From positions 7,258 through 71,257 of the forward strand of contig JAFEBA010000018.1 in assembly GCA_018266105.1 (NCBI GenBank): DNA of 64,000 nucleotides, read 5' to 3'. The notes under the pieces were generated by a model that worked only from the letters and a program-made list of their open reading frames with translations, had not been told where the DNA came from and searched no databases. Shown here piece after piece: positions 35,952 through 52,694 of the stretch (position 1 is the stretch's first letter; the number at the start of each line of letters is the position of its first letter). This stretch comes from a bacterium. Its GTDB lineage: Bacteria > Vulcanimicrobiota > Xenobia > Xenobiales > JADMJV01. The position numbers and the translations under genes were made by a program.

Positions 35952-36236
35952 TTGAACCTAATTCAAGCTGCAAAGCAGCAAAGGAGCAGAACAGCGTTGG
36001 CCAGACGTGGAAACCCTTACGCTATGGTGAGGCTGGAGCCTCACGTGATGAACCTGATCCAGCAGCGCAGCGAGCCGGCCGAACGCGGACGCGGCGGTGG
36101 TGTGAGTCAATATCTGCGCCGGTTGGTCTATGATCATCTGGGATTGGGGGAGCCGCCCTGCTTTGCCAGCCCGGAGCTGGAGGTGCCCGAACTTCCCCGG
36201 CGCAGCGAGCCCCACGCCGCCCCCGAACTGGCGTAG
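35952..36236 (+). CDS. Possible small ribbon-helix-helix-like DNA-binding protein (about 94 aa from TTG; about 70 aa from ATG at 36024). Transcribed divergently from the hybrid kinase.
   Basis: AAAGGAGAG lies 7 nt upstream of the TTG. The peptide …PYAMVRLEPHVMNLIQQRSEPAERG…VSQYLRRLVYDHL has a beta-strand then two helices, as in CopG/RHH proteins. The N-terminal MNLIQAAKQQRS is repeated internally as MNLIQQRSEP. Confidence 0.35.
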   Translation: MNLIQAAKQQRSRTALARRGNPYAMVRLEPHVMNLIQQRSEPAERGRGGGVSQYLRRLVYDHLGLGEPPCFASPELEVPELPRRSEPHAAPELA

Positions 36237-36339
36237 CGAAAAGGCTTGCTCTGTCCCGGCGTCTGAGGCGAGCTTTGTTGTGTGCGCCTGGCCCCGATTG
36301 TGGCAGCAGAAGAGCACGGTTACGAAGCTCTGGCGTTCT

Positions 36340-36460
36340 TGGACTGGAATTGAGTTTGTTAACGGGAGGTTGAATTTGTAAACGGGATGTGAATGACTTG
36401 GCGGCGCGTTAACAACTTGTTCATAAGTTGAGCGGAAATTTGTCATAATATCGGGCCACA
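36340..36460. promoter_or_regulatory. AT-richer intergenic region with direct repeats (AACGGGA-GT-GAAT twice) and an extended -10-like TGtcATAATAT ahead of the 36499 gene.
   Basis: Sequence: gtTAACGGGAGGTTGAATttgTAAACGGGATGTGAATGA…cgcgTTAAC…aaatttgTCATAATATcg. GC content is locally depressed relative to the flanking genes. Confidence 0.3.
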
Positions 36461-36498
36461 GAAGACGCAAGAGTGTCTTCACTGATTGGAGCTCGTGC

Positions 36499-36873
36499 AT
36501 GGCGCAGGCCCTGGCAATGGGGATGACGGAAATGTTCCGGTTTGCCCCGATAGTTGATTTACGAACGCCGCGTTCAACTTGGGACACGTACTGTCGAGCT
36601 ATCTTGACGGAGCAGCCGACGTGTCTGTGGGAGACGATCCATCCGAATTTGCGGGCGATGATGCAACGCCGCCTGCAGTTGGAAGGGTCCACCCGCTTCT
36701 TCCAGAGGATGAAGCCGATTATATCGGGTCCGTGGGGACGGTTGCGGTTGGGTGAAGCACACGAGGTGAGCCATTCGGCCGTGGTCTGCGAACTGTTTCG
36801 CGGCACCCAAGAAGTGGGTAAGGCGTGGTTTGCGTTTCACAATCGACAATGGGTGCTGAGTCAACTGAGTTAG
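36499..36873 (+). CDS. Hypothetical protein (124 aa).
   Basis: ORF with protein-like composition. The overlapping minus ORF 35958..36806 is low-complexity. Confidence 0.45.
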   Translation: MAQALAMGMTEMFRFAPIVDLRTPRSTWDTYCRAILTEQPTCLWETIHPNLRAMMQRRLQLEGSTRFFQRMKPIISGPWGRLRLGEAHEVSHSAVVCELFRGTQEVGKAWFAFHNRQWVLSQLS

Positions 36874-37658
36874 AGCCGCAAAACTGGCTCGCCATTGATG
36901 CGGGTGCCACTCGAATCCGGGTGGCACCTATTTGCTTTTCCGGAACTGCCCGTCTCTGTGGTCCGGTGGCGGTGGAAAATTTCGACTCCTCCCAGGGGCC
37001 CTCGCGGGTGGCACAGGCAGCCCGTTTGATTCGTTCGGTGGGCGAGGCGGCGGGCTGGACTCCGCCTTTTCGGGTGGGATTGGCCTGGGCCGGGGCACCC
37101 TCGGCCGACGGCCTGGGCACGGTGGCGGCACGCTATGGTCCGGCCATTCCCGACTTGGTGCCGCGTCTGGCCGAGTTGGTGCCGCTGGAGGGGTTGCCCT
37201 GTCTGCATAGCGATGCGCGCGCTGCTCTGGAAGGGGCGGCTTTAATTCACAAGTTTTCTTCCGCCTATGCGCTGATCGCGGGTTCGGGGCTGGGCGAGGC
37301 CTACTTTGAGAACGGTCGCAGCTGGAGCCGCGAGGAACTTCAAGCGCGCCTGGGGCGCGCGGCCAACTGGGAATACAAGGGTCGAGACGGCGAAGCCTGG
37401 CTGCGAGCGGCGGCCTGGCGCAATGAACGCCCCCGGCCTTTTCAGGAAGCGCTGCTGGCGCTGGTGGCGCAGCGTCTGCAGGTGGTTCGGCCGGAGGTGC
37501 TGGCTCTGGGGGGGCACTTTGGTCAGTGGTTTGAGTGGGGTTGGGTGAATCCAGAGGAGATCCGCGAGAAGTTTGGCCTGAGCCTGTTGCGGCTGGATCC
37601 TGAGGAAGCCCTGCTGGGCTGTGTTCAGATGGAGAGACGTCGTATACAGAAGGGCTAA
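36849..37658 (+). CDS. ASKHA-superfamily ATPase (BadF/BadG/BcrA/BcrD or N-acetylglucosamine-kinase-like).
   Basis: Phosphate-1 motif LAIDAGATRIRVA and a later …LIAGSGLGEA… (adenosine/phosphate-2-like) motif. The start is probably the internal Met (MGAESTELEPQNWLAIDAG). Confidence 0.5.
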   Translation: MGAESTELEPQNWLAIDAGATRIRVAPICFSGTARLCGPVAVENFDSSQGPSRVAQAARLIRSVGEAAGWTPPFRVGLAWAGAPSADGLGTVAARYGPAIPDLVPRLAELVPLEGLPCLHSDARAALEGAALIHKFSSAYALIAGSGLGEAYFENGRSWSREELQARLGRAANWEYKGRDGEAWLRAAAWRNERPRPFQEALLALVAQRLQVVRPEVLALGGHFGQWFEWGWVNPEEIREKFGLSLLRLDPEEALLGCVQMERRRIQKG

Positions 37659-37678
37659 GGCTCTGCTAGACTGGGCCC

Positions 37679-38239
37679 ATGAGGTGCCTTCTTTGTCTAT
37701 TGCTACTGGCTCTCCCGCTGGTTTGTGAGGCTCGCGGTCGCCACTGCCACGTGGGACGAAGCCACTTTATTCGCACCACTTCGTTCTATCGACCGCGCAC
37801 TTCGTTCTTTGGTCGACTCTTCTACTCGGCGCCGCTGCAACCGCTGCAATACAACGGTCAGAGCGCGACCGATCTGTTGGAGATGGACGGCGCCTACACC
37901 CGGGATTCTTTAGTCAAGGGCCTGGCGCTGGCTCTGGCTCCTAAGGGCAACCGTATGCTGCCTTGTGTTCTGGACTTTGATGAGGTGATTCGGCAGGGCG
38001 GCTTTGAGCGCTTTCTGGCGGATTGGGAGCCACCCGCCCGTCAGGAGCTGTTGGGATATCTGCAGCAAATCGAGTGTGAGGACACGTTACGCATCACCAA
38101 TGAGGTGCTGGCGCGCACCAATCCAACTCAAGAGGAGCTGGCCCAGGCCACTCAGGAGCTGCTGGATGACGGGAATAATCTTTACGACGCCCTTTGGGAT
38201 TATTGCTACGATCACCGCGAGGCGGTGGCCGGCCTTTAG
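37679..38239 (+). CDS. Secreted hypothetical protein (186 aa).
   Basis: Signal peptide MRCLLCLLLLALPLVCEA. Confidence 0.5.
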   Translation: MRCLLCLLLLALPLVCEARGRHCHVGRSHFIRTTSFYRPRTSFFGRLFYSAPLQPLQYNGQSATDLLEMDGAYTRDSLVKGLALALAPKGNRMLPCVLDFDEVIRQGGFERFLADWEPPARQELLGYLQQIECEDTLRITNEVLARTNPTQEELAQATQELLDDGNNLYDALWDYCYDHREAVAGL

Positions 38240-38592
38240 AGGATTCCGGTCAGCTTGAATCCTGAGGGGTCTTTGCGGAAACGGAAGCGGCCCAGGAAGT
38301 AGTGGCTGCCCTGGCGCCGCGGCCTGAGTCCTTGCAGTTGAGGGTGCTGGCCGGCCATGGTCACCAGGAAAGCCTTGCGGAAGGCGGCTTGTTGGGTGGC
38401 GCTGAGCTGGCCGTAGTGGGGCAGGTCAGGGGCTTTGCGGACTTCTAGCGCAGACCAGTCGATTTGTTGCTGGGCGGCGGGCCGGCCCCGAAAAAGATTG
38501 TCCAGCACGCTTCGCATTTCTTTTTCTTGGCCCAGGGTTTGGCCCGAGCAGGTCCGGTAGAGCAGCCAGGTGAGCAGCAGAGCTCGGTGCAT
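38236..38592 (-). CDS. Small hypothetical protein (118 aa), possibly exported.
   Basis: ORF convergent with 37679..38239 (4-nt overlap). N-terminal hydrophobic stretch MHRALLLTWLLYRTCSG. Weak evidence. Confidence 0.3.
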   Translation of the reverse strand: MHRALLLTWLLYRTCSGQTLGQEKEMRSVLDNLFRGRPAAQQQIDWSALEVRKAPDLPHYGQLSATQQAAFRKAFLVTMAGQHPQLQGLRPRRQGSHYFLGRFRFRKDPSGFKLTGIL

Positions 38593-38637
38593 TGGGTCAG
38601 ATTCTCCCTGGGGTTGGAGAAGGCCCGCTTCCTACCC

Positions 38638-41600
38638 ATGAAGAATCGCGCCCTCATGGCACGCAAAAAGCGCAAAACGAACGATCCTACTGACGGGGGC
38701 GGCGAATCCGCCGTGGCCGTGGAGGAAGAAGAGTTGACTGACTTTGAGGCCGTCCTGGACCAGGACCCGAACGGGTTGTTGGTGGTGGAGACGGAGACTC
38801 GTCAGGTCTTGTGGGCCAACCGCAGCGCTGAAAAGCTGCTCAAGAAGAAGCGTGAGAAGCTGCTGGCCGAGCCTTTTCCTGAGGAGTTGGAAGAGGGGCC
38901 CATGCGTACGCTGGACCTGAATCGCAAGGTTTCCACCTTGAGCTGGCAGGGTCAGGAAGCCAGCATGCTGGTTTTGACCGAGATTAGCGGGAATTCAGCC
39001 TCCTTTTCCACGGAATGGCGTCTGGAGGCGGCCGAAGAGCGGGCCCGTGAGGCCGAAGAGCAGGTCAGTCAGTTGCAGGCGCTGCTTCAGGAGGCGCGCA
39101 AGGCCGCCAAGGCGGCGGGTGGCGGCGACGCCAAGGAGCTGGCCGCTCTCAAGGAGCAGCTGGCTAAGGCTGAGGAGCGGGCTCAGGCGGCCGAAGCCTT
39201 GCTGGATGAGGCGTCCAGCGGCAGCAGCGAGCTGCAGGCTCTGCGTGAACACGAGCAGGAGCTGAAGGCCGAGTTGGCCGCCGCCCAGCAGCGCATGGAG
39301 CAGGTCGAACAAGAATTGCGCGCTGTGGAGAGTCGTGTGGACCTCTCCGAGCAGCGGGCTCGCGAAGCCGAGCAACTGATGGAGGAGGCGGAATCGCAGT
39401 CGCGCGAGACCGAGCGCCATCTGGAGGATGTCCAGGACAGCGTGCGCCATGTCGAGGAGCAGCTGGAGCAGGCACAGGCCGAGCTGGCTCAGGCTCGGGC
39501 CGATCTGGCCGCCGAGCGGAAGGCGCGCGAGCAGAGCGGGGCCGAGTCCAAGATCGCCGACCTGGCCGAGCAGGTTGAGATTCTAACCGAGGAGCTGGAG
39601 TCGGCTCGTACCCGGTTGTCGGCTTGGGACGAAAAGCAGGCCCAGTGGTCCACCCGCGAGAGCGAGATCGAGGAGTTGGAAGGTGTTCACCTGCAGGTGA
39701 TCACCGAGTTGGAGCAGCTGCGCGAAGAGCGGCAGAACTGGCAGGAAGCCCAGGCCGCCGAGACGGTAGAGCCGGGCGAGCTGGAGAAGCTTCAGGAGCA
39801 GCTGCGCGAAACCCAGGAGCGGGTGGACTTCCTGGAGGTGGAGCGCTCTGAGCTGGAAGAGAAGTGGCTGGAAGCTCGGGCCGAGCTGGAGACGGCTCAG
39901 CAGCAGGCGGCTGATCAGGACGCTGCGGCTCAGTTGACCCAATCCCAGCATGCGGAGGCTCAGGCCGAGCTACTGGGCCGCCTGGAAGAGCTGACCGCCG
40001 AGCTGGATCAGCTGCGTGCCGCGCAGAGCGGCGCGGCCGAGGGGCTGCAGGCCGAACTGCAGGCGGCTCAAGAGCAGATCAGTCAATTGACCGGTCAACT
40101 GAGCGCCTCTCAGGACGAGTGCACGACGGTCCAGGTTGAGCTGGCCACGGCTCAGGAGAATTGGGCCGAGTCGCAGAGTCAGGTGAATGAGGCTCAGACC
40201 GCTCTGCTGCAGGCACAGGCCCAGATTCAAGATATTCAGGCCCAGCTGGCCGAGGCCCAGGCCCATGTTAGCGAAACTCAAGGACAGCTGGGCGAGGCCC
40301 AGGCTGAAGCAGGGCAGTTGCGTTCGGAGCTGGAGAGCCTTCGACAGGCTGAGGGTCAGGACAAGACACTGGCGGCTCAGTTGGAGGAGCAGCTGGCTGA
40401 ATTGCAGCTGGAGTCGGCCGATCTCAACGAGAAAAACGCCGATCTGGCTCTGCAGTTGAGTGCCAGCGAGAGCAAAGCGGCCACGGCTGAGGAAGCTCTG
40501 GCGCAGGTGCGCAAGGAGCTGGAATCGCTGCAGGCGGTCAGCGGCGACCTGGACGATGTGCAGCAGCACCTGGTTTCGGTCGAGAAGGAACGCGACGAGC
40601 TGTCGCGCCATCTGGACGAGGCCGAGAGCGAGCTGCAGAAAGTGCGCGATCAGCTGGAGGAGAAGACGGCCGAGGCCGAGGCCCAGGCTGCCGCCCTGAG
40701 CGATTTGGAAAGTCAGCTCAACGAGAGTCTGGATGCGGTTGAGGAGGCCAAAAAGCCTTCGGCCGAGCTGGAGGCGCTCAAGGCCAATCTGGCTGCGGGC
40801 GAGGAGAAGGCCCGGCTGTTGCAAGAGCAGCTGGACGAGATGCTGGAGCGGATGGAGCAGGCCGACAAGCTAGAGACGGAAGTCTTTTTGCTTCGCGGCG
40901 CAGCCGACGAGCAGTCTTCGCGTTTGAAGGAGCTGGAAGAAGCCCATCAGGCTCGCGTCACCGAGCTGGAAGCGTTGCTGGCCGAGGCCCAGAGCCCGAG
41001 TCCACAAGCGCTCGAGGACGCCGAGGCCCGGATTGCGGCCGAGGAACGAGTCTCCGAGCTGGAGGCGGCTTTACAGGCGGCTCAGGGCCCCAATCCGGAA
41101 CTGCAGGCTCAGGAAGCCCGTTTGGTCGAGCTGCAAGCGCGGGTGAGCGAGTTGGAAGCGGCTCTGGCTGATGCTCAAGCCCCGGACCCTCAGCTGGAGG
41201 TGATGGAAGCTCGCGTCATGGAGTTGGAGCTGGCTCTCTCAGATGCGCAGACGGCTCTGGCCAGTGCCCAGGCACCCGATCCAAAACTGGCCGAGCAGGA
41301 GCAGTTGCTGGCCGAGGCCGAGAATCTGGTGGCCGAGCAGGAGGCGGCTCTGGCCAGCGCTCAGGCGGCCCGTGCGGCAGCCGAGGCTCGGGTGGCCGAG
41401 TTGGAAGCCGCTCTGCAAGAATCCAGTTCAGCGGCCCCAGCCACGGCCGAGGTGGATGCTCGGGTGGCCGAGCTGGAAGCGGCTTTGAGTCAAGCTCAGG
41501 GCGCCGCAGTGCAGCTCAGCGAACTGGAAGCGGCCTTCACGCAGTACAAGACGGACGCGGATGAGCGCGTGACTGAGCTGGAAGATCTGTTGGAGCAGGC

Positions 41601-43290
41601 CAGTCATTTTGAGCCAGAAGTGGCGCGTTTGAAGTCAGAACTGTCGGCGGCTCTGGCCGGGTCGAGTACACCCGATCCGCGAATTGCTGAGTTGGAGCTG
41701 GCCCTGGCGGCTTCACAGGAGGCCCTGGCCGAGGCTCAGCCCAAGCTGATGGAGCTAGAGTCGGAGCTGTTGCGACTGCAGCAGCTCACCCCCGAGCCCT
41801 CCGCCGATGGCGCTCGAATGATTGAGCTGGAGGCCGAGGTTTCTCGGTTGCAGGCCGAGCTGGATACGGCTCGGGCGGCCGACACCACCGCTGAGGTCGA
41901 AGCTCTGCAGGCACAATTGAACAGTCTGCAGCAGCAGCAGGCGGTGGCTCCGACCGGCGAGGGCGCGGATAAGCAGACCGAGCAGCTGGCCTTTGAAGAT
42001 AATCTGACCAAGCTGCCCAATCTGAATCTGTTGAAGCGCTATCTGGGCTTCTCCTTGAAGCAGGTGGAGCGCTATGATCGGAAGTGCGCGCTGGTGCACG
42101 TGGACGTGGACCGTTTCCAGGCCATCAACGAGGCCTTGGGGCCGGAGGCGGGCGACGAAGTCCTGCGTCAAGTGGGCGAGCGTCTGCAGAAGGTGGTGCG
42201 CACTTCGGATGTGCTGTGCCGCAAGGGCGAAGACGATTTCCTGATCTTGCTGAGCGAGGTGGCCGGCGAGGCTGATGCCCCTCAGTCCATTTCCATCGTG
42301 CTCAAGCGCATCCAGGAAGTGCTGGCGCCACCGATGATCGCCGGCAACCAGCCGGTTGTGGTGACGGCCTCGGTGGGCGTATCGCAATTCCCCAGCGATG
42401 CTGAGGACGGCGACAAGATGATGGCCCACGCTTATGAGGCGATGCGCCGGGCGAAGGAATTGGGCCGCAATCAAGTTCAGTTCTACACGGATGAATTGCA
42501 GAAGCGCCACGAGGCCCGGGCGACCCTGGAGGCGGAGCTGCGCAAGGCAGTGGAGGCGCGGCAGTTCCAGCTGCTGTATCAGCCGATCGTGCACCTGGCT
42601 ACGGGCGCCATCAAGGGTGTAGAGTCTCTGCTGCGCTGGGCTCATCCGTCCTACGGTGTACTGACGCCCGACTACTTCCTGGAAGTCGCGGACGAAGCCG
42701 GAGTTATGGTGCCACTTGGCCGCTGGGTGATTCTGCAGGCCGCTCAACAGCTTTACGAATGGTCGCGTCAGGGTCTGGATTTGTTCGTGACCGTGAACCT
42801 GTCCACGCGTCAGTTCTTGCAGGCCGATCTGGTGGATACGATTCGGCGAGCGCTGGAAACCACGGGCGCTCCGGCCCACAACTTTGTGCTGGAGATTCCC
42901 GAGTCGGTGCAGATGCTGGATATTCAGCGGGTGCAGACGATTTTGCTGGCGCTTCGTCAGGCGGGTGTGCGAGTGGCCTTGGACCGCTTCGGCTCCGGCT
43001 TCTCCTCGCTGGAGCGCATTCACAGCGAACTGACCACCTTGATCAAAGTCGACCGCAAGTTCCTGTTCCATTCGGCCTCCAATGCGGCCGCGCTGAACGT
43101 GACGGCGGCGGCTATGGCTCTGGCCCGCGTGTTGCGCGTGCGTCCTGTGGCGGTGGGCGTGGAAAACGCGGCCCAACTGTCACTTTGTCGTCAGTTGGAG
43201 TGCGAGTATGTCCAGGGCAATCTGGTCTATATTCCCACGGATGCGGCCCAGATCAGCGAGCTGGCTCGCGCCGGCCGCCTCTTGCGTTGA
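38638..43290 (+). CDS. Large c-di-GMP signalling protein: N-terminal PAS-like region, coiled coil of about 1,100 aa with tandem repeats, degenerate GGDEF domain (GEDDF), and EAL domain (about 1,550 aa from Met59 of the track ORF).
   Basis: I took the start at ATG 38638, with GGAGAAGG upstream. The GGDEF region reads …LTKLPNLNLLKRYLGF…VHVDVDRFQAINEALG…RKGEDDFLILL…. The EAL region reads …QLLYQPIVHL…VESLLRW…EVADEAGVMVPLGRWVIL…DRFGSGFSSLERI…KVDRKF. The central 1,100 aa are E/A/L/Q-rich heptad coiled coil. Confidence 0.85.
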   Translation: MKNRALMARKKRKTNDPTDGGGESAVAVEEEELTDFEAVLDQDPNGLLVVETETRQVLWANRSAEKLLKKKREKLLAEPFPEELEEGPMRTLDLNRKVSTLSWQGQEASMLVLTEISGNSASFSTEWRLEAAEERAREAEEQVSQLQALLQEARKAAKAAGGGDAKELAALKEQLAKAEERAQAAEALLDEASSGSSELQALREHEQELKAELAAAQQRMEQVEQELRAVESRVDLSEQRAREAEQLMEEAESQSRETERHLEDVQDSVRHVEEQLEQAQAELAQARADLAAERKAREQSGAESKIADLAEQVEILTEELESARTRLSAWDEKQAQWSTRESEIEELEGVHLQVITELEQLREERQNWQEAQAAETVEPGELEKLQEQLRETQERVDFLEVERSELEEKWLEARAELETAQQQAADQDAAAQLTQSQHAEAQAELLGRLEELTAELDQLRAAQSGAAEGLQAELQAAQEQISQLTGQLSASQDECTTVQVELATAQENWAESQSQVNEAQTALLQAQAQIQDIQAQLAEAQAHVSETQGQLGEAQAEAGQLRSELESLRQAEGQDKTLAAQLEEQLAELQLESADLNEKNADLALQLSASESKAATAEEALAQVRKELESLQAVSGDLDDVQQHLVSVEKERDELSRHLDEAESELQKVRDQLEEKTAEAEAQAAALSDLESQLNESLDAVEEAKKPSAELEALKANLAAGEEKARLLQEQLDEMLERMEQADKLETEVFLLRGAADEQSSRLKELEEAHQARVTELEALLAEAQSPSPQALEDAEARIAAEERVSELEAALQAAQGPNPELQAQEARLVELQARVSELEAALADAQAPDPQLEVMEARVMELELALSDAQTALASAQAPDPKLAEQEQLLAEAENLVAEQEAALASAQAARAAAEARVAELEAALQESSSAAPATAEVDARVAELEAALSQAQGAAVQLSELEAAFTQYKTDADERVTELEDLLEQASHFEPEVARLKSELSAALAGSSTPDPRIAELELALAASQEALAEAQPKLMELESELLRLQQLTPEPSADGARMIELEAEVSRLQAELDTARAADTTAEVEALQAQLNSLQQQQAVAPTGEGADKQTEQLAFEDNLTKLPNLNLLKRYLGFSLKQVERYDRKCALVHVDVDRFQAINEALGPEAGDEVLRQVGERLQKVVRTSDVLCRKGEDDFLILLSEVAGEADAPQSISIVLKRIQEVLAPPMIAGNQPVVVTASVGVSQFPSDAEDGDKMMAHAYEAMRRAKELGRNQVQFYTDELQKRHEARATLEAELRKAVEARQFQLLYQPIVHLATGAIKGVESLLRWAHPSYGVLTPDYFLEVADEAGVMVPLGRWVILQAAQQLYEWSRQGLDLFVTVNLSTRQFLQADLVDTIRRALETTGAPAHNFVLEIPESVQMLDIQRVQTILLALRQAGVRVALDRFGSGFSSLERIHSELTTLIKVDRKFLFHSASNAAALNVTAAAMALARVLRVRPVAVGVENAAQLSLCRQLECEYVQGNLVYIPTDAAQISELARAGRLLR
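41040..41525 (+). repeat. Intragenic tandem repeats (units of roughly 28–29 codons) in the coiled-coil region of the GGDEF-EAL gene.
   Basis: The protein repeats …RVSELEAALQAAQGPNPELQAQEARLVEL / QARVSELEAALADAQAPDPQLEVMEARVMEL / ELALSDAQTALASAQAPDPKLAEQEQLL… / ARVAELEAALQES…AEVDARVAELEAALSQAQ. The DNA repeats gagctggaagcggct…gctcaggc…cccgatcc accordingly. Confidence 0.5.
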
Positions 43291-43727
43291 ACTGTCCCCG
43301 CTGCCCCGGGGAGCTGCGCGAGGTTAAGGTCGGGCGTGGCCTGGCCCATGTTTGCCGGGGTTGCGAAGGCTGCTGGTTTGACGGCAAGAACCTGGAGCGC
43401 ATACTGGACGGGGAGCAAATCGTGGGCACTCCGCTGGGCGTGAGTCTGGTGGGGGAAGAGCACGGTGTGGCCCTGGAGGCCCCGGTGCACTGTCCCCGTT
43501 GCGCCCGGCTGATGCGCCGCTATGAATACGGCGGTGACAGCCAGGTGATTCTGGATGCCTGTCCCGATCATGGCGTCTGGCTGGACGACGGAGAGCTCGG
43601 TTCATTGCTGGAATACGTGGCCATTCGCGAGGGAGAGTTTTACGATTTGCCCGGAGGCGCGGCCTTGCCTCGAATTCCGCCGGCCTTCTGGCACTGGTTG
43701 GGAAGCTGGTTTCGGAAGTTAACCTGA
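43287..43727 (+). CDS. Protein with two zf-TFIIB-like zinc-ribbon domains (about 146 aa), translationally coupled to the GGDEF-EAL gene. Start uncertain: TTG at 43287 overlapping the TGA stop, or GTG at 43200.
   Basis: Two copies of CPRC…(V)C…C…G(V/C)W(F/L)D…(E/N)L…(I/L)L: CPRCPGELREVKVGRGLAHVCRGCEGCWFDGKNLERIL and CPRCARLMRRYEYGGDSQVILDACPDHGVWLDDGELGSLL. There is no ATG before the first ribbon, so the start must lie at or upstream of the upstream gene's stop. Confidence 0.55.
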   Translation: MNCPRCPGELREVKVGRGLAHVCRGCEGCWFDGKNLERILDGEQIVGTPLGVSLVGEEHGVALEAPVHCPRCARLMRRYEYGGDSQVILDACPDHGVWLDDGELGSLLEYVAIREGEFYDLPGGAALPRIPPAFWHWLGSWFRKLT

Positions 43728-43759
43728 CGTTCAGATCTGCTCCGGGGCTTTGGCATAGA

Positions 43760-44167
43760 GTGGCGGGTATGAAGCTATCAGGCTGGACTGGCATCCCTTA
43801 TGGAACGGTGTTCCACGGGAATTTCGCGGGCCACCCGTCGGTGGACGAGATCCACTCGGACGGCGCGGTGGATCCGTCTTTTTCGCAGCCGGGCGATGAT
43901 TTTATTCCTTCCATTCAGGATCAGCGCGTCAAGGACTTTTTGTTGACCGGACTGGCCCCGCATCAGGGCTGGCAGCATCAGGAAGACGGTTCCTGGGCGT
44001 TTGATCATCAGCGCCTGTCGGCCTGCAAGGGTCTGGTCACCTTAAAGTCCTGGATTTGGGAAAGTGGCTCCAAGGTAACCCATCATATAGAGGCTCCTTA
44101 CAAGTGGGACACGGGCAAGGTGGGCCTGAAAGAGAGCACCGAGGGCTTTAAGATCACGGCCAGCTAG
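43760..44167 (+). CDS. Hypothetical protein (about 135 aa).
   Basis: ORF with protein-like composition. No motif. Confidence 0.4.
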   Translation: MAGMKLSGWTGIPYGTVFHGNFAGHPSVDEIHSDGAVDPSFSQPGDDFIPSIQDQRVKDFLLTGLAPHQGWQHQEDGSWAFDHQRLSACKGLVTLKSWIWESGSKVTHHIEAPYKWDTGKVGLKESTEGFKITAS

Positions 44168-45648
44168 GGCGTGCGCACCAGCCAGCGAGGCTGAAGTTTG
44201 CCCACCAGAGGTGGCTCGGCCTCCTTCGGCAACGAGACCAGCAGTTCGATTTTGAAGGCCTCGGCCACCTGTGCTGAGGCGGTGATGAGACGGTCGTGTT
44301 CGAAACTGGGCTTGGCGGGAACGGGAATTTTCAGCATCTTCGGCTGGAGTTTGCCCAGCACGGCCAGGCTCTGCAGTCCGCGCGAGCTGCATTTGAGAAT
44401 CCAGTGGAGCCCTCGCTCCTGGAGATGCAACAGACTTTCCAGCCGGTAGCGGTGATGCAGCAGGCCTTCGTCCACTTCCCAGAGCCAGCCGGGCTGCAGC
44501 AAGAAGCTTGTGTCCACCCCTGGGTTGAGCCAGGCTGAAGCCAGCGGCGCCAGGCGGGTGGCTTCCCCTCTCTGGTTCTCCAGGTAGGTTTTCTCCCATC
44601 GGGCCCAGAGGCCCTGGACCCCTGCTGAGTCCACCAAGTCGAGTACTTCCGGTCCTTCAAGCTGCTGACCGGGCCAATCCGGCCAGTAGTGCTCGAGCGG
44701 CTCGGGCCCGAGTACGGGCAGCCAGCGAAAACTGAGGGAGTCGCCGCGCAGTGCTTCTTCCAGGGCGGCGTGCCGTTCTTTTTTGAGCTGGTGGCTTTGT
44801 TTGAGGGCTTCGGCGTAAAGCTCGCAGCTGTCGCCGCCGTTCTCTTTAGCGCGCTTGAGAGCGAGTTCGGCCACCTCCATCCACTCGTTGGTGAGGCGGG
44901 CGTCTTCAGGGCAGACGGCCACGCCGATGGAGGCGGAGCATTTGACCTGGGCTTCGGCCACGGTGAAGGGCTGGCGGAAGGCGGCGATCAAGCGGTTGGC
45001 CACAACGGCCGCTCGACCGCGCACGGGCAGGTGACCGGAGTCACTGCCGCGGGTGCTGGTTCCGCCGCGGTCGGCCGTGAGTTCGGTGAGCAACACCAGG
45101 AATTTGTCGCCTTCTAAACGGCCCACGATGTCGGAGCTGCGCACGTTGTTTTGCAGGCGTTGGGCCGCCTGAATCAGGACTTCGTCGCCGGAACTGCGCC
45201 CGAGTTCGGAATTGACGTGGCGCAGGTGGTCCAGATCAACGCGCAGCAGAGCCGAGGAGCGCATGTAGCGCTGGGACTGGCTGCAGCTGTGTTCGACAAA
45301 TTGGGCCAAAATGTTCCAGTTGGGGAGACCGGTGAGCGGGTCCTCAAACGCCATTCGTTCCGTGTCTTCGGACACCCAGGCTACCTGGGCGTCTTCTCGG
45401 AAGATGTACAGGCGCTGGTTGGAGGGAGCCTCCACCACATCCACCACCCAGCCGGCCGAACCGGCTTCCGGGCTGGGCAGGCGATGCTGGCCCGAGGGGA
45501 GGTGATGACTGAAGTGGCTGCCCTTCTCCGCCTGGCTGCCAAAGAAGCGGCGCGCCTCGGGGTTGGACCTTTGCACATAATGCTGAGAGTCCAGCACCAG
45601 CACGGCGTAAGGCAGGCTGTCGAGCAGCCAGTCGGGCGGATTTACCAT
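44164..45648 (-). CDS. GGDEF-domain protein with a degenerate active-site motif (LEGDKF) and an N-terminal PAS-like region. Probably a non-catalytic or regulatory diguanylate-cyclase homologue.
   Basis: …FEDPLTGLPNWNILAQF…RVDLDHLRHVNSELGRSSGDEVL…RLEGDKFLVLL…ASIGVAVCPED…ALKRAKENG. The GGDEF fold is present but the signature reads EGDKF. Confidence 0.75.
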   Translation of the reverse strand: MVNPPDWLLDSLPYAVLVLDSQHYVQRSNPEARRFFGSQAEKGSHFSHHLPSGQHRLPSPEAGSAGWVVDVVEAPSNQRLYIFREDAQVAWVSEDTERMAFEDPLTGLPNWNILAQFVEHSCSQSQRYMRSSALLRVDLDHLRHVNSELGRSSGDEVLIQAAQRLQNNVRSSDIVGRLEGDKFLVLLTELTADRGGTSTRGSDSGHLPVRGRAAVVANRLIAAFRQPFTVAEAQVKCSASIGVAVCPEDARLTNEWMEVAELALKRAKENGGDSCELYAEALKQSHQLKKERHAALEEALRGDSLSFRWLPVLGPEPLEHYWPDWPGQQLEGPEVLDLVDSAGVQGLWARWEKTYLENQRGEATRLAPLASAWLNPGVDTSFLLQPGWLWEVDEGLLHHRYRLESLLHLQERGLHWILKCSSRGLQSLAVLGKLQPKMLKIPVPAKPSFEHDRLITASAQVAEAFKIELLVSLPKEAEPPLVGKLQPRWLVRTP

Positions 45649-47657
45649 ACGCGATTGCGCGGGTTGCGCACCATGGGCGAGTTCTCCGGGATCTGGAAGG
45701 CCTTTTGGAATTCCGGCATGTTGGAAAGCGGCCCGTTGACGCGGAAGCGCGGGTTGGGGTGGGGATCGGTGTTGACCTGGAGGCGCACGTACTCGTCCCG
45801 CATATTCATGGCCCAGATGCGAGCGTAGGCCAGGAAAAAGCGCTGCTCGGGTGTGAAGCCGTCGAGCGTTTTTGGAGTTTTGCCAGCTTGGGAAGCCTGG
45901 TAGGCTTCCCAGGCGAGCTTGAGCCCGCCGAGGTCGGCGATGCTTTCGCCCACCACCAGTTTGCCCTGGATGTGCAGTCCTGGCGCCACTTCATAGCCGC
46001 TGAACTGATCCACGATGGCTTTGGAGAGAGCCTGGAATTTCTTGAGGTCCTCGGGTTTCCACCAGTTGCGAAGGTTGCCTTTGGGGTCAAACTGAGCACC
46101 CTGATCGTCGAAACCGTGGGTGATTTCGTGGCCAATGACCACGCCCAGTGCGCCGTAGTTGACCGAGTCGTCCGCTTCCATGGAGAAGAACGGGGGCTGC
46201 AGGATGCCGGCGGGGAACACGATTTCGTTGTTTTGGGGATCGTAATAGGCGTTGACGGTGGGTGGAGTCATGTACCATTCATTGTGGTCCATGGGTTTGC
46301 CGATTTTCTTGAGGTCGCGCTGGACTTCGAAGGCATCGGCGTGCTGGACATTGGCCAGGTAGTTACCCGGGCTGATGCTCAGGCTGGCGTAATTGCGCCA
46401 GCGCTCAGGGTAGCCGATCTTCTGGTGGAAGGAGGCAAGCTTTTCCTGGGCCGCCTTTTTGGTTTCGGGCGTCATCCACTCCAGCTCGTTGATGGTGTTC
46501 TTGAGAGCACCGCGGATGTTTTTGAGCATATCTTCCACTTTGGCCTTGGCGGCCGGAGGGAAGTGGCGGTCCACGTACTTGTGGCCGAGGGCGTCACCCA
46601 TGTCCCCGTCGATTTCTTTGACTACCCGGCGCCAGCGAGTGGTGATCTCCTGGGCGCCGGTCAGTGTCTTGCCGTAGAAGCCAAAGAAAAGCTGAGCCCA
46701 GTCTTCAGTCAGGTAGTCGGCAGATTTGCGCAGCACGTTCCATTGCAGGTAGGCTCGCTGGGCCTCCAGCGGGGTGGTTTTGAGGATGGCGCCAAGCAGT
46801 TTGAAGAACTTGGGCGAGGAGATGTTGACCGACTTCAGAGCGGGAGCGCCGAGTTCTTTGAAGTAGCGCGGCCAGTCCAGGCCGGGCGCTTCTTTGGCCA
46901 GTTGGGCCACGCTGACGGGATGGTAGGTGGCCTTGGGGTCGCGCTGCTGGACCAGCGTCATGCTGGCCCGGGCCAGGCGGGTCTCAAGTTCAAAGACCTG
47001 CTTAGCCTTCTTCTCGGCCGTGGCGGCGTCGTCTCCCCATTTTTTAAAGACCTCCACCAGGAAGGCCTGATACTGTTCCCGGATTTTTTGTGATTTTTCG
47101 TCCGTCCGGGTGTAGTACTCGGATTCGGGCAGGCCCAGGCCGCCCTGGTTGAGCTGGCCGATGACCAGACTGCTGTCTTTTGAATCCTGGGCCGAGCCGA
47201 AGCTGAAGTAGGGGTGGCACGCCTGCCGGTGGCGTTGGGTTAACCAGCCTTGAAGGTCTTTGGTTTTGGCCAGTTCGTCCAGCTCTTGTTTGACCAGGTT
47301 GATGCCGGCCGCCTGGCCGGCTTCGGTCATGCCGCTGGTGTAGAAGTAGCCCAGCTTTTTGCCCTCGGCGTCGCTGGGGTTTTTGGCTTGTTCTTCCAGG
47401 ATGGTGTGAAGTTTGTCCTGATTTTCTTCCAGCAGCTTGTTGAAGGTGCCCCAGCGGGGTTTGTCAGAGGGAATGGGGTTGGCTTTGAGCCAGCCGCCGT
47501 TGGCGTATTGGAAGAAGTCCTGGGCGGGATTTGCGCTCCGGTCGAGGTTGTTGAGGTCCAGGCCGCTCTGCGAGGGTTCGGCGGTTGCGGCAATGGAAAG
47601 CAAAAGAGCCAGGCCGAGGTGGGCCAGGCTCTTTTTGAGAGAGTACGGGTGGGTCAT
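45642..47657 (-). CDS. Secreted M13-family zinc metallopeptidase (neprilysin/PepO-like endopeptidase).
   Basis: Signal peptide. HExxH in VIGHEITHGFDDQG. Distal GESIADLGG (ExxAD) motif. NAYY and overall M13 length and architecture. Confidence 0.9.
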   Translation of the reverse strand: MTHPYSLKKSLAHLGLALLLSIAATAEPSQSGLDLNNLDRSANPAQDFFQYANGGWLKANPIPSDKPRWGTFNKLLEENQDKLHTILEEQAKNPSDAEGKKLGYFYTSGMTEAGQAAGINLVKQELDELAKTKDLQGWLTQRHRQACHPYFSFGSAQDSKDSSLVIGQLNQGGLGLPESEYYTRTDEKSQKIREQYQAFLVEVFKKWGDDAATAEKKAKQVFELETRLARASMTLVQQRDPKATYHPVSVAQLAKEAPGLDWPRYFKELGAPALKSVNISSPKFFKLLGAILKTTPLEAQRAYLQWNVLRKSADYLTEDWAQLFFGFYGKTLTGAQEITTRWRRVVKEIDGDMGDALGHKYVDRHFPPAAKAKVEDMLKNIRGALKNTINELEWMTPETKKAAQEKLASFHQKIGYPERWRNYASLSISPGNYLANVQHADAFEVQRDLKKIGKPMDHNEWYMTPPTVNAYYDPQNNEIVFPAGILQPPFFSMEADDSVNYGALGVVIGHEITHGFDDQGAQFDPKGNLRNWWKPEDLKKFQALSKAIVDQFSGYEVAPGLHIQGKLVVGESIADLGGLKLAWEAYQASQAGKTPKTLDGFTPEQRFFLAYARIWAMNMRDEYVRLQVNTDPHPNPRFRVNGPLSNMPEFQKAFQIPENSPMVRNPRNRVW

Positions 47658-48282: not shown

Positions 48283-49692
48283 ATGATGAGTGTTGAGACC
48301 GCTCAGGTGCGTCAGGAATCCGATACGATGGGGACGATTGAGGTCGCCAACGATCGTTACTGGGGTGCTCAGACCCAGCGTTCTTTGAAGTATTTTGCCA
48401 TCGGCGAGGACAAGATGCCGCCGGTATTGATTCGGGCCTTCGGGATTCTTAAGCGTTCGGCGGCTGAGGTGAATGCGGAGCTGGGGCTGTTGAAGCCGGA
48501 GCTGCGCGATTTGATCGTTCAGGCCGCCAATGAGGTGATCGAGAATAAGTTGGATGAGCACTTTCCGCTGCGCATCTGGCAGACGGGCTCGGGCACACAG
48601 ACCAACATGAACACCAATGAGGTGATCTCCAACCGGGCCATCGAGCTGGCGGGCGGACAGATGGGCTCCAAGAAGCCCGTTCATCCCAATGATCATGTCA
48701 ACATGTCTCAGTCCTCCAATGATACCTTCCCCACCGCGATGCACATCGCAGCGGTGGAGGTGCTGCACAAGCAGTTGGTTCCCGCCATCAAGCATCTGCG
48801 TGATGTGTTGGCTTCGCGTCAGCAGAAATTCGAGCACATTGTCAAGATTGGGCGTACTCATCTGCAGGATGCGGTGCCGCTGACGATGGGTCAGGAATTT
48901 GGCGGCTACGTGGCCATGTTGGACCAGGATCTGCAGCGCATCGAGATGGTTCTGCCTCATCTGTATGAGCTGGCGGCCGGGGGGACGGCGGTCGGTACGG
49001 GTCTCAACTCGCACCCGGATTTCGCCGTCAAGGTCGCCGAGCGGATTGCCAAGATTAGCGGATTCGCCTTTGTGACCGCGCCCAACAAGTTTGCCGGTCT
49101 GGCCTCCCACGATGCGCTGGTGATGGCCAGCGGGGCGCTGAAGACACTGGCATGTTCGTTGATGAAGATCGCCAACGACATTCGCTGGTTGGCTTCGGGT
49201 CCTCGCTGTGGTCTGGGTGAACTCGTGTTGCCTGAAAATGAACCGGGTTCATCGATTATGCCGGGAAAAGTGAATCCCACTCAATCTGAAGCCATGACCA
49301 TGGTGGCCGTGCAGGTGATGGGCAATGACGCGGCCATCGGTTTTGCGGGATCGCAGGGCAATTTTGAGTTGAATGTGTTCAAGCCGGTCATCATCCACAA
49401 CTTTTTACATAGTGTTCGCCTGCTGAGCGATACTTGTCGCTCCTTTGCCGACCATTGTGCTGTGGGTATCGAGGCCGACGAAGAGGTCATCGCGGGCTAT
49501 GTTCGCGACTCGCTGATGTTGGTGACGGCGCTGGCGCCGAAGATTGGCTACGACATGGCGGCCAAGGTCGCCAAGCAAGGCCACAAAGAGAAGAAGAACC
49601 TTAAGCAGGTTTGTCTGGAGTTGAAATTGTTGACCGAGGAAGAGTTTGACGAGGCCCTCCAGCCTCTGAAAATGTGCTTCCCGGGAGTGTAA
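48283..49692 (+). CDS. fumC: Fumarate hydratase class II (fumarase C).
   Basis: Fumarate-lyase signature [31 protein letters not shown] (fumarase-type rather than aspartase). Overall FumC length and conserved blocks. Confidence 0.95.
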
Positions 49693-49815: not shown

Positions 49816-50394
49816 ATGAGCGCCGATCGTAGGAGTCGAGACAGAATGGCACCAGAGCAGAAACTATTGGCCAGTATCAGGAGCATCGTTTTGATTGCCC
49901 CTATCATCTTGATGGCCACGTTTATCGGGGTCTATCAGTATAGCTGGCGGGTGAAAGCGCAGCCTTTCCCGTTTAATCACAAGTATCATGCCGGTGACCG
50001 CGGCATCGATTGTAAGTATTGTCACCGCGGAACGGATAAAGGCTATATGGCCGGCGTTCCGTCGGTGTCGGATTGCTGGGCCTGTCACCAGAATCTGACC
50101 GATAAGGGTCAGTTTGGTGCGCCGGTGATTGAGCGTCCCGACGTGCAACGTCTGCTCAAGGACTACGTCGAGACCAAGAAAGAGATCAAGTGGTACAAGG
50201 TTTATGACATGCCCGAGCATGTCAAATTCCCTCACAAGGCGCACATCAATGCTGGTTTGCAGTGCACCGAGTGCCACGGCAAGGTGGAGAATATGCCGGT
50301 GGTGCAGATGAACCAGGTTCCCCATATGGGCTGGTGCGTCGGCTGTCATCGTCAGAAAAATGCTCCCGTCGATTGCACGGTTTGTCACTACTAG
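49816..50394 (+). CDS. actA: Pentahaem c-type cytochrome, the ActA subunit of alternative complex III.
   Basis: Five CxxCH motifs (CKYCH, CWACH, CTECH, CVGCH, CTVCH) and an N-terminal membrane anchor. It lies immediately upstream of the MopB/FeS/NrfD genes. Confidence 0.8.
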   Translation: MSADRRSRDRMAPEQKLLASIRSIVLIAPIILMATFIGVYQYSWRVKAQPFPFNHKYHAGDRGIDCKYCHRGTDKGYMAGVPSVSDCWACHQNLTDKGQFGAPVIERPDVQRLLKDYVETKKEIKWYKVYDMPEHVKFPHKAHINAGLQCTECHGKVENMPVVQMNQVPHMGWCVGCHRQKNAPVDCTVCHY

Positions 50395-50406
50395 GCGGAG
50401 GATTCA

Positions 50407-52668
50407 GTGTCACTTACACGTCGTAACTTTATTAAATGCGGTCTGATGACCGGGGCGGCAGTTTCGCTCACGGCCTGTCAGCGCAATGTCGAGCACGGGG
50501 TCGTCTCGCAGTATGTGATGCCGGAATATGCGATTCCGGCTCAACCTCTTTATTGGGCCACCACTTGCGGTGAATGTATCGGGGGCTGCGGCGTAGCCGT
50601 CAAGACGACCGATGGTCGCGCCATCAAGTTGGAGGGTTTGCCTGAGCACCCGCTCAGCCGGGGCCGGCTTTGCGCCCGCGGTCAGTCTGGACTGCAGGTG
50701 ACCTATCACCCCAGTCGCCTGAACGACATCACCGATGGTTCCGGCAAGGTTCTGTCGCGGGACTGGGGTGAGTTCTTCAAGAGCACTCTGGATAAGTCCA
50801 ATCTCACCGACAAGCAGCCTTTGTTTGTGGTTCGCTCACTGGGCGGCACGTTGGGTGGGCTGTTGATCGAGTTGGCCAAAGAGACCAAAGGTAAAATCTG
50901 GTTGCTGGATTACCCCAGTCGTCTGGCTGAGCGCCAGGTGATGAAGGCTCTGACCGGCAAGGCCGAGTTGCCCTTCTATCGTTTTGAAGACGCCGACTAT
51001 GCCGTCACCTTCGGTGGCGACTTGCTGGCCCTGGGTCACAACATCGTGCGCTCCGGGTGGGGTTACGGTGAGTTCCGTCAGGGACGCGGTCGTGACCGCG
51101 GCACTCTGGTGTCTGTTTCCTCGCGCATCAATATGACCGCAGGCAACTCCGACCGCTGGCTGCCCACCCGTCCGGGTGCTGAGGGCTGGGTGGCGCTGGC
51201 CGTGGGCAATATCATCGCCGCCAAGAAGGGCGGATCTGTCTGGCCCGCCTGGGCCAAGAGCGTGTCGCTGGAGAAGGCGGCCGAGGCTTCGGGCCTGGAG
51301 GCTTCGCTGATCGAGCGTCTGGCCGCCCAGCTTCTGAAAGCCAAGAAGCCCTTGATCGTAGCCGACAGCGATGCCGGTAACTACATCAATGGGGTAGACT
51401 CGCTCTATATCATTCACTCGCTGCAGAAGCTGTTGACCGGCAGCATCGAGACCTTCGAGCCGGAGAACGTTCTGGGCGTTAAGGGCGGCGTGCCCAAGGG
51501 CCTGATCGTAAATACGGCCGAGGCGATGAAGCATCTGGACAGCACCAACTGTCTGGCGACCTGGATTTTCGATCTGGATGTGGTCAATTTGATGCCGGCC
51601 TCCATCGACGCCAAAGCTCAGCTGGCCAAGGGCGGCAATCTGGTGGTGTTCTCCACCTTTGCCAGCGAGACCAGCAAGCTGGCCAAAGCGGTGGTGCCTA
51701 TCCTGAATTGGGTTGAAGAATTTGGCGACCAGCGCATCACCGGCGCCGGGCTGGATATCTACAATGTGCAGCAGCCGGCCATCCGGCCGCACTGGGAGAA
51801 CGCCCGCTCGCTGGGCGACATCCTGACGGCCATCAAGGTGGGCGACCCCATTGGTCTGGGCGTGATTCCCAATGGAGCCGCCGATGGCGCCTCCAAGGGC
51901 AAGACCTTCCACGACTTGATCAAAGGCGACGCTGACCAGACCCGCTGGGAAGCCCTGCTGGCTCGTGGCGGTTCCTATAAGGAAGAATCTCTGGCCTCGG
52001 ATATCTACAAGCATCGCGTGGCCACTCCGCCCAAACTCGTGGCTGATCCCGGTAAGCCACCGGCAGGCGTCAACCCCTACGAGGGATTGGAGCCGGCCAG
52101 CGTGACCGCCTGGACGGAGACCTTTGTGGAGGGGCCCGTGCTGGTGCCCATCGCCACTCTGGCTCTGCGCGACGGTAGTCTTGGCAACCGGCCCTGGATG
52201 CAGGAGTTGCCCGACCCCATGACTACCTCGGTCTGGGGCGGCTACATCGAGATGAGCCAGACCCTGGCCGACAAGCTGAAGGTCAAGCGTCACGACGTGG
52301 TGCGCGTCACGGTGCCCGGCGTCGAGAAGGCGATTGTGGGTCCAGCCCTGCCGTCGGCCTCGATGCACGAAGACTTTATCGGCGTGCCGGTTGGGGCTGA
52401 GAATCCGGATTACTCGGGTTGGTCGAACCTGAACTACGGTCTGGGCAGCAAGGTGTTTGGCCGCTATGGCTACACCAACGCCAACTATAGTAAGGGCGGT
52501 ATCAATCCGCTCACCAAGATCAAGGCTGAGATGACCAAGGCGGGTGAACCCCAGTGGGTTGGCGCCAAGGTTGAGGTAGCCAAGGATCCTGAAAACAAAG
52601 TTGACATGATTACAGCGATGGATATCCGCGTGTTTGAACTGCCGCGCGAGATTCTGCCGTTTCAGTAA
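50407..52668 (+). CDS. actB1: Molybdopterin-oxidoreductase-like large subunit with a Tat signal (ActB1 module of ACIII, encoded separately from the FeS module).
   Basis: Twin-arginine signal MSLTRRNFIKCGLMTGAAVSLTAC. N-terminal CGECIGGCG…C cluster-binding motif. MopB-like length. Confidence 0.8.
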   Translation: MSLTRRNFIKCGLMTGAAVSLTACQRNVEHGVVSQYVMPEYAIPAQPLYWATTCGECIGGCGVAVKTTDGRAIKLEGLPEHPLSRGRLCARGQSGLQVTYHPSRLNDITDGSGKVLSRDWGEFFKSTLDKSNLTDKQPLFVVRSLGGTLGGLLIELAKETKGKIWLLDYPSRLAERQVMKALTGKAELPFYRFEDADYAVTFGGDLLALGHNIVRSGWGYGEFRQGRGRDRGTLVSVSSRINMTAGNSDRWLPTRPGAEGWVALAVGNIIAAKKGGSVWPAWAKSVSLEKAAEASGLEASLIERLAAQLLKAKKPLIVADSDAGNYINGVDSLYIIHSLQKLLTGSIETFEPENVLGVKGGVPKGLIVNTAEAMKHLDSTNCLATWIFDLDVVNLMPASIDAKAQLAKGGNLVVFSTFASETSKLAKAVVPILNWVEEFGDQRITGAGLDIYNVQQPAIRPHWENARSLGDILTAIKVGDPIGLGVIPNGAADGASKGKTFHDLIKGDADQTRWEALLARGGSYKEESLASDIYKHRVATPPKLVADPGKPPAGVNPYEGLEPASVTAWTETFVEGPVLVPIATLALRDGSLGNRPWMQELPDPMTTSVWGGYIEMSQTLADKLKVKRHDVVRVTVPGVEKAIVGPALPSASMHEDFIGVPVGAENPDYSGWSNLNYGLGSKVFGRYGYTNANYSKGGINPLTKIKAEMTKAGEPQWVGAKVEVAKDPENKVDMITAMDIRVFELPREILPFQ

Positions 52669-52694
52669 CTGAAAGCGCTCGAAAAGGAGAGAGT

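Follow-up and report, generated by a model that had tools for sequence, protein, structure and literature searches.

A doubly degenerate GGDEF–EAL module on a long coiled-coil rod and its overlapping zinc-ribbon gene in a Vulcanimicrobiota genome

The stretch of 64,000 nucleotides analyzed here (the window; positions 7,258 to 71,257 of contig JAFEBA010000018.1, assembly GCA_018266105.1), from an uncultured soil-type bacterium of the phylum Vulcanimicrobiota/Eremiobacterota, carries at 38638..43727 two genes of the forward strand, to which all coordinates below refer unless a strand is given. The larger gene (38638..43290, defined by its open reading frame [ORF] and translation) encodes a protein with a PAS-like domain, a coiled-coil rod and degenerate GGDEF and EAL domains, and the smaller one (43287..43727) encodes a protein of 146 residues with two matches to PF13453. 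An initial annotation had described the region as a degenerate GGDEF–EAL gene paired with a zinc-ribbon gene, and the ORFs, the Pfam matches and the called genes show this pair to be real and correctly placed; both proteins occur, identical, as called genes on one public Logan contig. The long ORF extends over 38464..43290 and its first ATG, at 38638, yields a product of 1,550 residues. The true start is nonetheless likely to be the ATG at 38656 (Met7), before a polybasic MARKKRK, because the methionine at residue 7 is invariant in the family alignment; in the closer family members it is followed by a polybasic MA(R/K)KKRK. Hydrophobicity at the level of a transmembrane helix is absent from every segment of the large protein (maximum KD19 = 1.43), which is cytoplasmic and has no transmembrane segment.

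The large protein belongs to a family of 16 members of 712 to 1550 residues with the same order of domains (PAS, rod, degenerate GGDEF, degenerate EAL), of which the window protein is the longest seen. The named members come from metagenome-assembled genomes (MAGs) of the Vulcanimicrobiota/Eremiobacterota, and one family representative is annotated as Candidatus Eremiobacteraeota. A scan of genomes, one per species, identified full-length orthologues in three Vulcanimicrobiota-labelled MAGs and two further orthologues labelled 'bacterium' and 'uncultured Burkholderiales'. The last of these loci (L013) has a 277-residue upstream gene in common with the Vulcanimicrobiota loci, and the Burkholderiales label of its MAG is for this reason probably wrong. 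A word-indexed search with the GGDEF–EAL module missed full-length orthologues, which were recovered by an exhaustive search with the N-terminal domain. When the family profile of the N-terminal domain was run against metagenomes, only four short contigs were returned, all of them ending before the downstream genes.

The GGDEF and EAL domains

The EAL domain (42532..43227; Pfam match at residues 1299-1530, E 1e-54) finds its best matches among solved structures in TBD1265 (1.4e-47), followed by MucR, MorA, CC3396 and DosP. In five alignments to solved enzymes, the window protein reads DRFGSGFSS and VGVE opposite DDFGTGYSS and EG(V/I)E, the sole exception being an engineered MorA variant with NNFG. 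Arg1450 (42985..42987) takes the place of the second DDFG Asp and Val1506 (43153..43155) that of the first EGVE Glu, and the ESL, N, ExxE, first DDFG Asp, KxD and QG elements are kept. The catalytic and substrate positions were compared column by column with the 118 nearest GGDEF–EAL proteins outside the family (the outgroup). The second position of DDFG is Asp in 110 of the 118 outgroup proteins and Arg, Asn or Ser in all 16 family members; the first position of EGVE is Glu in 103 of the 118 and Val or Thr in every family member. Ten further residues of the window protein (Q1315, E1329, R1333, N1387, E1419, E1422, D1449, K1470, D1472 and Q1526) match the outgroup consensus, and G1527 of the QG motif is likewise aligned with the consensus of both outgroup and solved enzymes. 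The whole family keeps the corresponding Q, E, N, E, E, first Asp, K and Q, and 15 of its 16 members keep the Arg of ExLxR. The two losses also co-occur outside the family, with Val at the Glu position in five of the eight outgroup proteins that lack the Asp.

Structural work links both positions to the second metal (M2) of EAL enzymes. The second Asp of PA3825 (Asp161) ligates metal 2, as does the Asp of KxD, and its Glu217 makes contact with Ca2+ at the M2 position and takes over the phosphate contacts of M2 when the site is empty (PMC5301497); BlrP1 uses Asp302 and Asp303 as metal ligands (PMC3989770). The first Glu of EGVE corresponds to E703 of TBD1265 and to E352 of RocR, and in TBD1265 the E703A replacement (first Glu of ExxE) has been reported to abolish activity, whereas E706A does not (PMC12943098). 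The initial annotation had regarded the protein as probably a phosphodiesterase, a view that finds no support in the presence of DRFG for DDFG and VGVE for EGVE, both losses being fixed in 16 of 16 family members.

Across six orthologues, 78-98% of the columns in the EAL region are invariant, versus 0-36% in most segments of the rod, and the last 150 codons of the gene combine 97% amino acid identity with only 57-59% identity at third positions. Purifying selection on the GGDEF–EAL module is strong, and no part of the protein is more conserved than the EAL domain. Since the domain is highly conserved, its ligand pocket is kept and two residues linked to metal 2 are lost, an EAL domain that binds without hydrolyzing appears to be the best reading of this sequence.

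The GGDEF domain (41992..42474; Pfam match at residues 1119-1279, E 1.3e-34) is degenerate at its A-site, which reads GEDDF (42226..42240, residues 1197-1201) where active cyclases have GG(D/E)EF. The orthologues all carry GEDDF or NEDDF, and the A-site is degenerate in all 16 family members (GEDDF, NEDDF, SEDDF, GEDEF, AEDEF and others), whereas the outgroup proteins are mostly GGDEF. The GEDDF signature, already noted in the initial annotation as likely inactive, is thus not a sequencing error. Five residues upstream lies an intact I-site RxxD (RTSD, 42199..42210), which is retained in 14 of the 16 family members. When the window protein is aligned with MorA and further GGDEF domains, its DxDxF..IN…GD and AK..GRN motifs also appear as conserved; we take the conserved residues to be D327, N335, D344, K442 and R446 in PleD numbering, which contact guanosine triphosphate (GTP) in active cyclases.

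Identity between EAL domains within the family ranges from about 33 to 89%. The best GGDEF–EAL match outside it, P0042 (44% identity), combines GEDEF with DDFG and EGVE, and the fact that the nearest outgroup protein has this constitution suggests that the family descends from a PdeA-like enzyme and subsequently lost the M2 site.

The PAS domain and the rod

The N-terminal 1,100 residues had been described as almost pure coiled coil, a description that fits only part of them. Residues 1-125 comprise the polybasic N-terminus and a PAS-like domain (38740..39012, residues 35-125). The Pfam PAS match in the window protein (residues 35-108, E 0.0086) falls below the cutoff, and the cutoffs are passed by some other family members. 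An exhaustive search with residues 1-145 identified 15 cluster representatives (712-1458 residues) with the same N-terminal domain, together with weaker matches in several stretches inside multi-PAS histidine kinases. The domain is joined to the rod by a junction helix, FSTEWRLEAAEERAREAE (39004..39057), in which F123, E126, W127, E130, E134, A136, R137 and E140 are invariant among 16 sequences and whose family consensus is F..EW(R/K)(L/I)E(A/S)A.ERAR.AE.

The helical rod extends over residues ~130-1100, or about 970 residues, and is composed of two parts. In the first (39025..40782, residues ~130-715, with two prolines) the heptad coiled coil is nearly continuous. Heptad phasing was assessed in segments of 42 residues as the share of large hydrophobic residues at positions a and d of the best register, for which shuffled sequences gave a mean of 0.49 and a 95th percentile of 0.67. 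From residue ~148 to ~714, 70-100% of the large hydrophobic residues occupy a and d of one register, and phasing exceeds the 95th percentile of the shuffles almost continuously, in most segments, so that for this region the description as coiled coil holds well. Phasing is weaker over residues 715-1090, which contain 15 of the 17 prolines of residues 130-1100. The rise of a coiled coil is 0.1485 nm per residue; the continuous heptad part (~590 residues) would thus measure ~87 nm if it forms a single coiled coil, and the segmented, proline-kinked part (~350 residues) could add up to ~57 nm.

Matches of the rod to the arms of SMC, Rad50, JetC and LmuB proteins are explained by composition. Membership of the large protein in the SMC/Rad50 group was considered and discarded, the NCBIfam matches being far under the cutoffs, confined to the arms and unaccompanied by any match to a head or ATPase domain. 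Membership in a defence system was likewise rejected, for the PADLOC matches (LmuB and JetC arms) are far below cutoffs and reflect coiled-coil composition only.

The second part of the rod contains a segmented repeat zone (40921..41817, residues 762-1060) made of 31-residue units of the form RV(S/T/A)ELEAAL..AQxPxP and of diverged copies. The motif [RK][VIL]x[ED]LE is present in 10 copies, all within residues 762-1036, against 0.10 +/- 0.31 in 2,000 shuffles of the rod, and xPxP occurs six times against an expectation of 0.27. Copies at residues 773, 804, 835 and 866 are spaced by exactly 31 residues (93 nucleotides), and later copies are diverged and irregularly spaced. The four tandem units proposed at the outset are therefore real and far above chance, and the unit is of 31 residues instead of about 28.

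It had also been proposed that the domain may expand or contract by slippage. In the window genome ongoing slippage is unlikely, since the four units share only 48-60% pairwise DNA identity, no exact repeat in the gene exceeds 16 nucleotides and Tandem Repeats Finder did not report the 31-residue array. Between relatives, repeat number does differ, and some of them carry near-perfect repeats. The repeat zone is the main place of length difference among orthologues, with columns at window residues 775-873 gapped in 94-100% of cases among six orthologues; the L006 orthologue lacks about 115 residues at window residues 775-915, and that of L004 has three near-perfect 35-residue units (105 nucleotides) with exact repeats of 36 nucleotides. 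Judged from these alignments, the rod grows and shrinks by repeat units over evolutionary time. In L013, an assembly gap (a run of N at ~9900..10380) falls within near-identical rod repeats.

The zinc-ribbon gene and its neighbours

The product of the smaller gene matches PF13453 (Zn_ribbon_TFIIB) in two stretches (E 3.4e-17, 62 bits versus a cutoff of 22), which correspond to ribbon 1 (43290..43409) and ribbon 2 (43485..43607), and its NCBI entry reads 'zf-TFIIB domain-containing protein [bacterium]'. There are 39 homologues with invariant Cys and GVWLDDGEL columns, and over 18 aligned sequences C23, C26, C69, C72, C92 and H95-G105 (HGVWLDDGELG) are conserved, with V97 present in at least 90%. 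The Pfam support and these homologues establish that the ORF is a real gene and not an untranslated frame. An AlphaFold2 (AF2) model with a predicted local distance difference test (pLDDT) score of 80.7 has a helix after each of the two ribbons and an additional C-terminal helix. The latter, PPAFWHWLGSWFRKLT (43677..43724), is rich in Trp, and the helical hydrophobic moment of its conserved tail, FWHWLGSWFRKL, is moderate (~0.6); that this tail seeks the membrane is speculation. The only structural neighbour is ZifS (TTHA0897) of Thermus (PDB 8yoz; Foldseek E 0.12, probability 0.96-0.99). Like ZifS and PF13453, the protein has a CPxC…CxxC ribbon followed by a GxW(L/F)DxxEL helix (39-41% identity over 41-51 residues), and it is unlike ZifS in its two tandem ribbons and its Trp-rich C-terminal helix. 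Searches for functional literature on ZifS, TTHA0897, zf-TFIIB or PF13453 returned nothing, and a search for the ribbon protein on plasmids gave no match.

The start of the ribbon gene had been placed over the stop codon of the EAL gene, with a GTG 87 nucleotides upstream as the alternative. Several lines of evidence settle it on the TTG of the TTGA at 43287..43290, in which TTG is the start of the ribbon gene and TGA the stop of the EAL gene. The gene callers chose this same TTG, and ribbon homologues that are unlinked to any EAL gene begin with MNCPRC, right at the first ribbon. Seven related loci (L002-L007 and L011) have GTGA at the same junction, a T-to-G exchange that in either direction retains a start codon (NTG) together with an Arg codon. 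The in-frame GTG at 43200 is excluded as a start because relatives (L002, L004, L006 and L011) carry stop codons in the ribbon frame 30-33 nucleotides upstream of the NTG. As overlapping start and stop codons are typical of translationally coupled genes, synthesis of the ribbon protein is probably coupled to termination of the large ORF.

The ribbon gene is not present wherever the large gene is. It has been lost in L009, and L010 keeps only GTGAACTGC before the sequence diverges; its place is taken by a different ORF in L012, which we read as a putative Mug-like glycosylase, and by an ORF of 1,066 residues in L013. The large gene of L022 is directly followed by the counterpart of the convergent gene described below, with no ribbon, and no ribbon gene accompanies the distant family members of L019, L020, L021 and L023. 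From this distribution the ribbon protein is, as far as the compared loci indicate, an optional, lineage-specific accessory and not an obligate partner of the large protein.

Directly after the ribbon gene lies a gene for an orphan protein of 132 residues (43769..44167), detected by tblastn in L002-L011 at 71-79% identity and retained in all close orthologous loci, including those without the ribbon gene. It has only nine homologues and no Pfam match, and its AF2 model (pLDDT 86.8) is a beta-meander with no fold match in the PDB (TM score at most 0.28). On the reverse strand, a convergent gene (44164..45648) encodes a protein of 494 residues with a PAS-like N-terminus and a GGDEF domain (Pfam E 2.3e-34) that is degenerate (EGDKF) and has an intact RxxD. 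Pfam does not recognize the C-terminal half of this protein even at E <= 10, and its EAL ancestry is based solely on its alignment to the recognizable EAL domain of the L021 homologue. This gene is the most widely conserved neighbour, being found in L002, L006, L010, L022 and the distant L021, where both GGDEF and EAL are still recognizable, and by sequence its product looks like a paralogue of the C-terminal module of the large protein.

Upstream of the large gene, the 277-residue ORF mentioned above (36825..37658, no Pfam match) is present in all six orthologous loci at 53-83% identity and is conserved more widely than the ribbon gene or the 132-residue orphan. It is followed by an ORF of 186 residues (37679..38239) with a borderline DMP19-like Pfam match (24.9 bits versus a cutoff of 25), for which tblastn gave no counterpart in L002-L007 or L009-L013 and which looks like a lineage-specific insertion. 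Directly upstream of the large gene, a called gene for 118 residues on the reverse strand (38236..38592) has counterparts of 41-50% identity in L006 and L009-L012 and no Pfam or PADLOC match. Farther away, an ORF of 1,139 residues (25708..29127) resembles, by sequence judgement alone, filamentous-haemagglutinin-like repeat proteins. On the other side lie genes for an M13 peptidase (45642..47657, reverse strand) and a class II fumarase (48283..49692), and ORFs resembling a multihaem cytochrome/molybdopterin oxidoreductase (alternative complex III-like) cluster (49816..54820); these are syntenic in L002, L010 and L022. PADLOC gave no match among the neighbours of the large gene. An E-value-ranked Rfam scan of 36000..46000 found no riboswitch or other RNA element, only chance-level microRNA and long non-coding RNA matches, and a promoter and terminator scan found nothing exceeding the shuffle expectation.

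A distant family member, P0165 (1,089 residues; 6001..9270 of L020), is encoded within a division and cell wall (dcw) cluster, in the order murE-murF-mraY-murD-ftsW, P0165 and an unknown protein of 972 residues. This position may hint at a connection with division or envelope synthesis.

A proposed receptor on a rod and the rival explanations

Receptors for c-di-GMP (cyclic dimeric guanosine monophosphate) built on degenerate GGDEF–EAL modules are an established class, with LapD acting at membranes, FimX at pili and CsrD in RNA decay, all coupled via short linkers. The window protein shares with this class the degeneration of both catalytic signatures (GEDDF on one side, DRFG and VGVE on the other), which extends to its whole family. 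Proteins in which both domains have degenerated serve as c-di-GMP receptors, LapD being an example, and, as in LapD and FimX, the retention of the EAL fold as a likely c-di-GMP pocket predicts a receptor role (PMC3032553). On balance, and with modest confidence, we favour the view that the large protein is a cytoplasmic c-di-GMP receptor or effector carried on a very long helical rod, and not a cyclase or a phosphodiesterase. The resemblance to known receptors is partial. Unlike LapD (KVL) and FimX, which lost M1 ligands or DDFGTG, the window protein keeps the first metal (M1) site and the substrate contacts and loses only two residues of the M2 site. It has neither the HAMP and transmembrane segments of LapD nor the REC domain of FimX, and a rod of ~970 residues stands in place of their short signalling helix. 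The EAL matches to FimX are also weak (E 1e-18 to 1e-22, as compared with 1e-47 for TBD1265).

A mechanism can be outlined under this view. The protein would dimerize in parallel through its PAS domain, rod and EAL domain, and c-di-GMP would be bound, but not hydrolyzed, in the EAL pocket and perhaps also at the intact RxxD of the GGDEF domain. Occupancy by c-di-GMP would then alter the engagement of a partner or the assembly of the rod-borne module, so that the protein might work as a tether or scaffold, roughly 90-140 nm long, that responds to c-di-GMP. The rod would have evolved by gain and loss of repeat units and not by ongoing slippage. The ribbon protein could be a co-translated accessory partner, perhaps drawn to the membrane by its Trp-rich helix, that was deleted in sister lineages.

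Several observations weigh against a receptor that only binds. The catalytic Lys (K1470), the Asp of KxD (D1472) and the whole M1 site are intact, which leaves room for weak or unconventional hydrolysis; the nearest outgroup protein, P0042, is of the PdeA type; and the GGDEF domain retains its GTP-binding residues, as a GTP-activated enzyme would be expected to do. The ribbon protein, the 132-residue orphan and the convergent GGDEF protein are linked to the large protein by adjacency only. The first three of these points would fit an active EAL phosphodiesterase in which the degenerate GGDEF domain is a GTP-sensing activator, as in PdeA (CC3396) of Caulobacter, and in which the rod sets localization. 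GEDDF resembles the GEDEF of PdeA, the contacts to guanine and phosphate are kept, and PdeA has the same order of PAS, degenerate GGDEF (second Gly replaced by Glu) and EAL, its EAL domain (3u2e) being a strong sequence match (E 1.4e-42). Moreover, ESL, N, ExxE, the first Asp, KxD and QG are present, K1470, D1472 and the M1 site among the intact elements; the ancestor was probably an enzyme such as P0042, with GEDEF and a canonical EAL; and the best partial NCBIfam matches are to phosphodiesterases, far below their cutoffs (336 versus 980 bits). The protein resembles the active phosphodiesterases TBD1265, MucR, MorA and RocR, its best solved-structure matches (E 1e-47 to 1e-44), in the ExLxR, N, ExxE, KxD and QG motifs, and departs from them precisely in DRFG and VGVE. 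Unlike PdeA, whose EAL is canonical and active, it lacks the Glu of EGVE and the second Asp of DDFG, and has ~970 residues of rod between PAS and GGDEF. It is these losses that, to our mind, make an active phosphodiesterase unlikely: a Val stands at the Glu that is essential in TBD1265 and an Arg at an Asp that ligates M2, both residues have been lost in 16 of 16 members across EAL identities of ~33-89%, and the losses co-occur in the outgroup, as would be expected from inactivation of the M2 site.

The remaining explanations start from the rod. With ~970 residues of heptad-phased helix, a length that varies freely (family totals of 712 to 1550 residues) and one family member in the dcw cluster after ftsW, the protein could be a cytoskeletal or filament protein akin to crescentin, FilP or Scy, its GGDEF–EAL module being a vestigial or structural (dimerization) end domain with no role in nucleotide binding. 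The likeness to crescentin, FilP, Scy and SMC-type arms consists of hundreds of heptad-phased residues rich in Ala, Glu, Leu and Gln, and no homology to the rod goes beyond composition; we know of none among these proteins with a c-di-GMP module. The module is, however, the most conserved part of the protein, and the retention of c-di-GMP-contact and M1 residues across the family is hard to explain if no ligand is bound, and we accordingly give this possibility little credence. Similarly improbable, in our estimate, is a PAS-regulated protein whose rod folds back like the arms of SMC or Rad50, bringing the PAS domain against the GGDEF–EAL module for direct control. The family-wide invariance of the PAS domain and of the PAS–rod junction, and the compositional matches to SMC, Rad50, JetC and LmuB arms, would suit such a fold, but the protein has neither hinge nor head domain, the arm matches are restricted to the coiled coil and explained by its composition, and large indels that distinguish orthologues in one half of the rod have no matching counterpart in the other, as illustrated by the gap of ~115 residues at residues 775-915 with respect to L006.

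If the large protein is indeed a receptor on a rod, a broader and decidedly tentative proposal may be put forward: that the family consists of c-di-GMP-sensing molecular rods, seen so far only in MAGs of the Vulcanimicrobiota/Eremiobacterota type, in which a non-hydrolyzing EAL domain (M2 loss, with Arg or Asn for Asp and Val for Glu) on a coiled coil measuring 20 to 140 nm places or bridges cellular machinery in response to c-di-GMP, its length being tuned by units of 31-35 residues. Given the member located between ftsW and the rest of the dcw cluster, the envelope or division apparatus is a candidate for such machinery.

What is new here is the placement of a doubly degenerate module on a rod of about a thousand residues, together with an unusually clean, M2-only inactivation that is shared by the whole family, in a phylum on which hardly any experimental biology exists. 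The literature searched yielded no description of a c-di-GMP protein that has a long coiled coil. The finding corrects the habit of annotating any degenerate GGDEF–EAL protein as a phosphodiesterase. If the receptor reading is true, the family would offer a natural binding-only EAL design, useful for probing the role of metal 2, an example of repeat-driven length evolution in a signalling scaffold and a first approach to the spatial side of c-di-GMP signalling in the Vulcanimicrobiota. Should the proposal of a family of rod sensors also prove true, these proteins would constitute a tether or ruler under second-messenger control for which there is no described counterpart.

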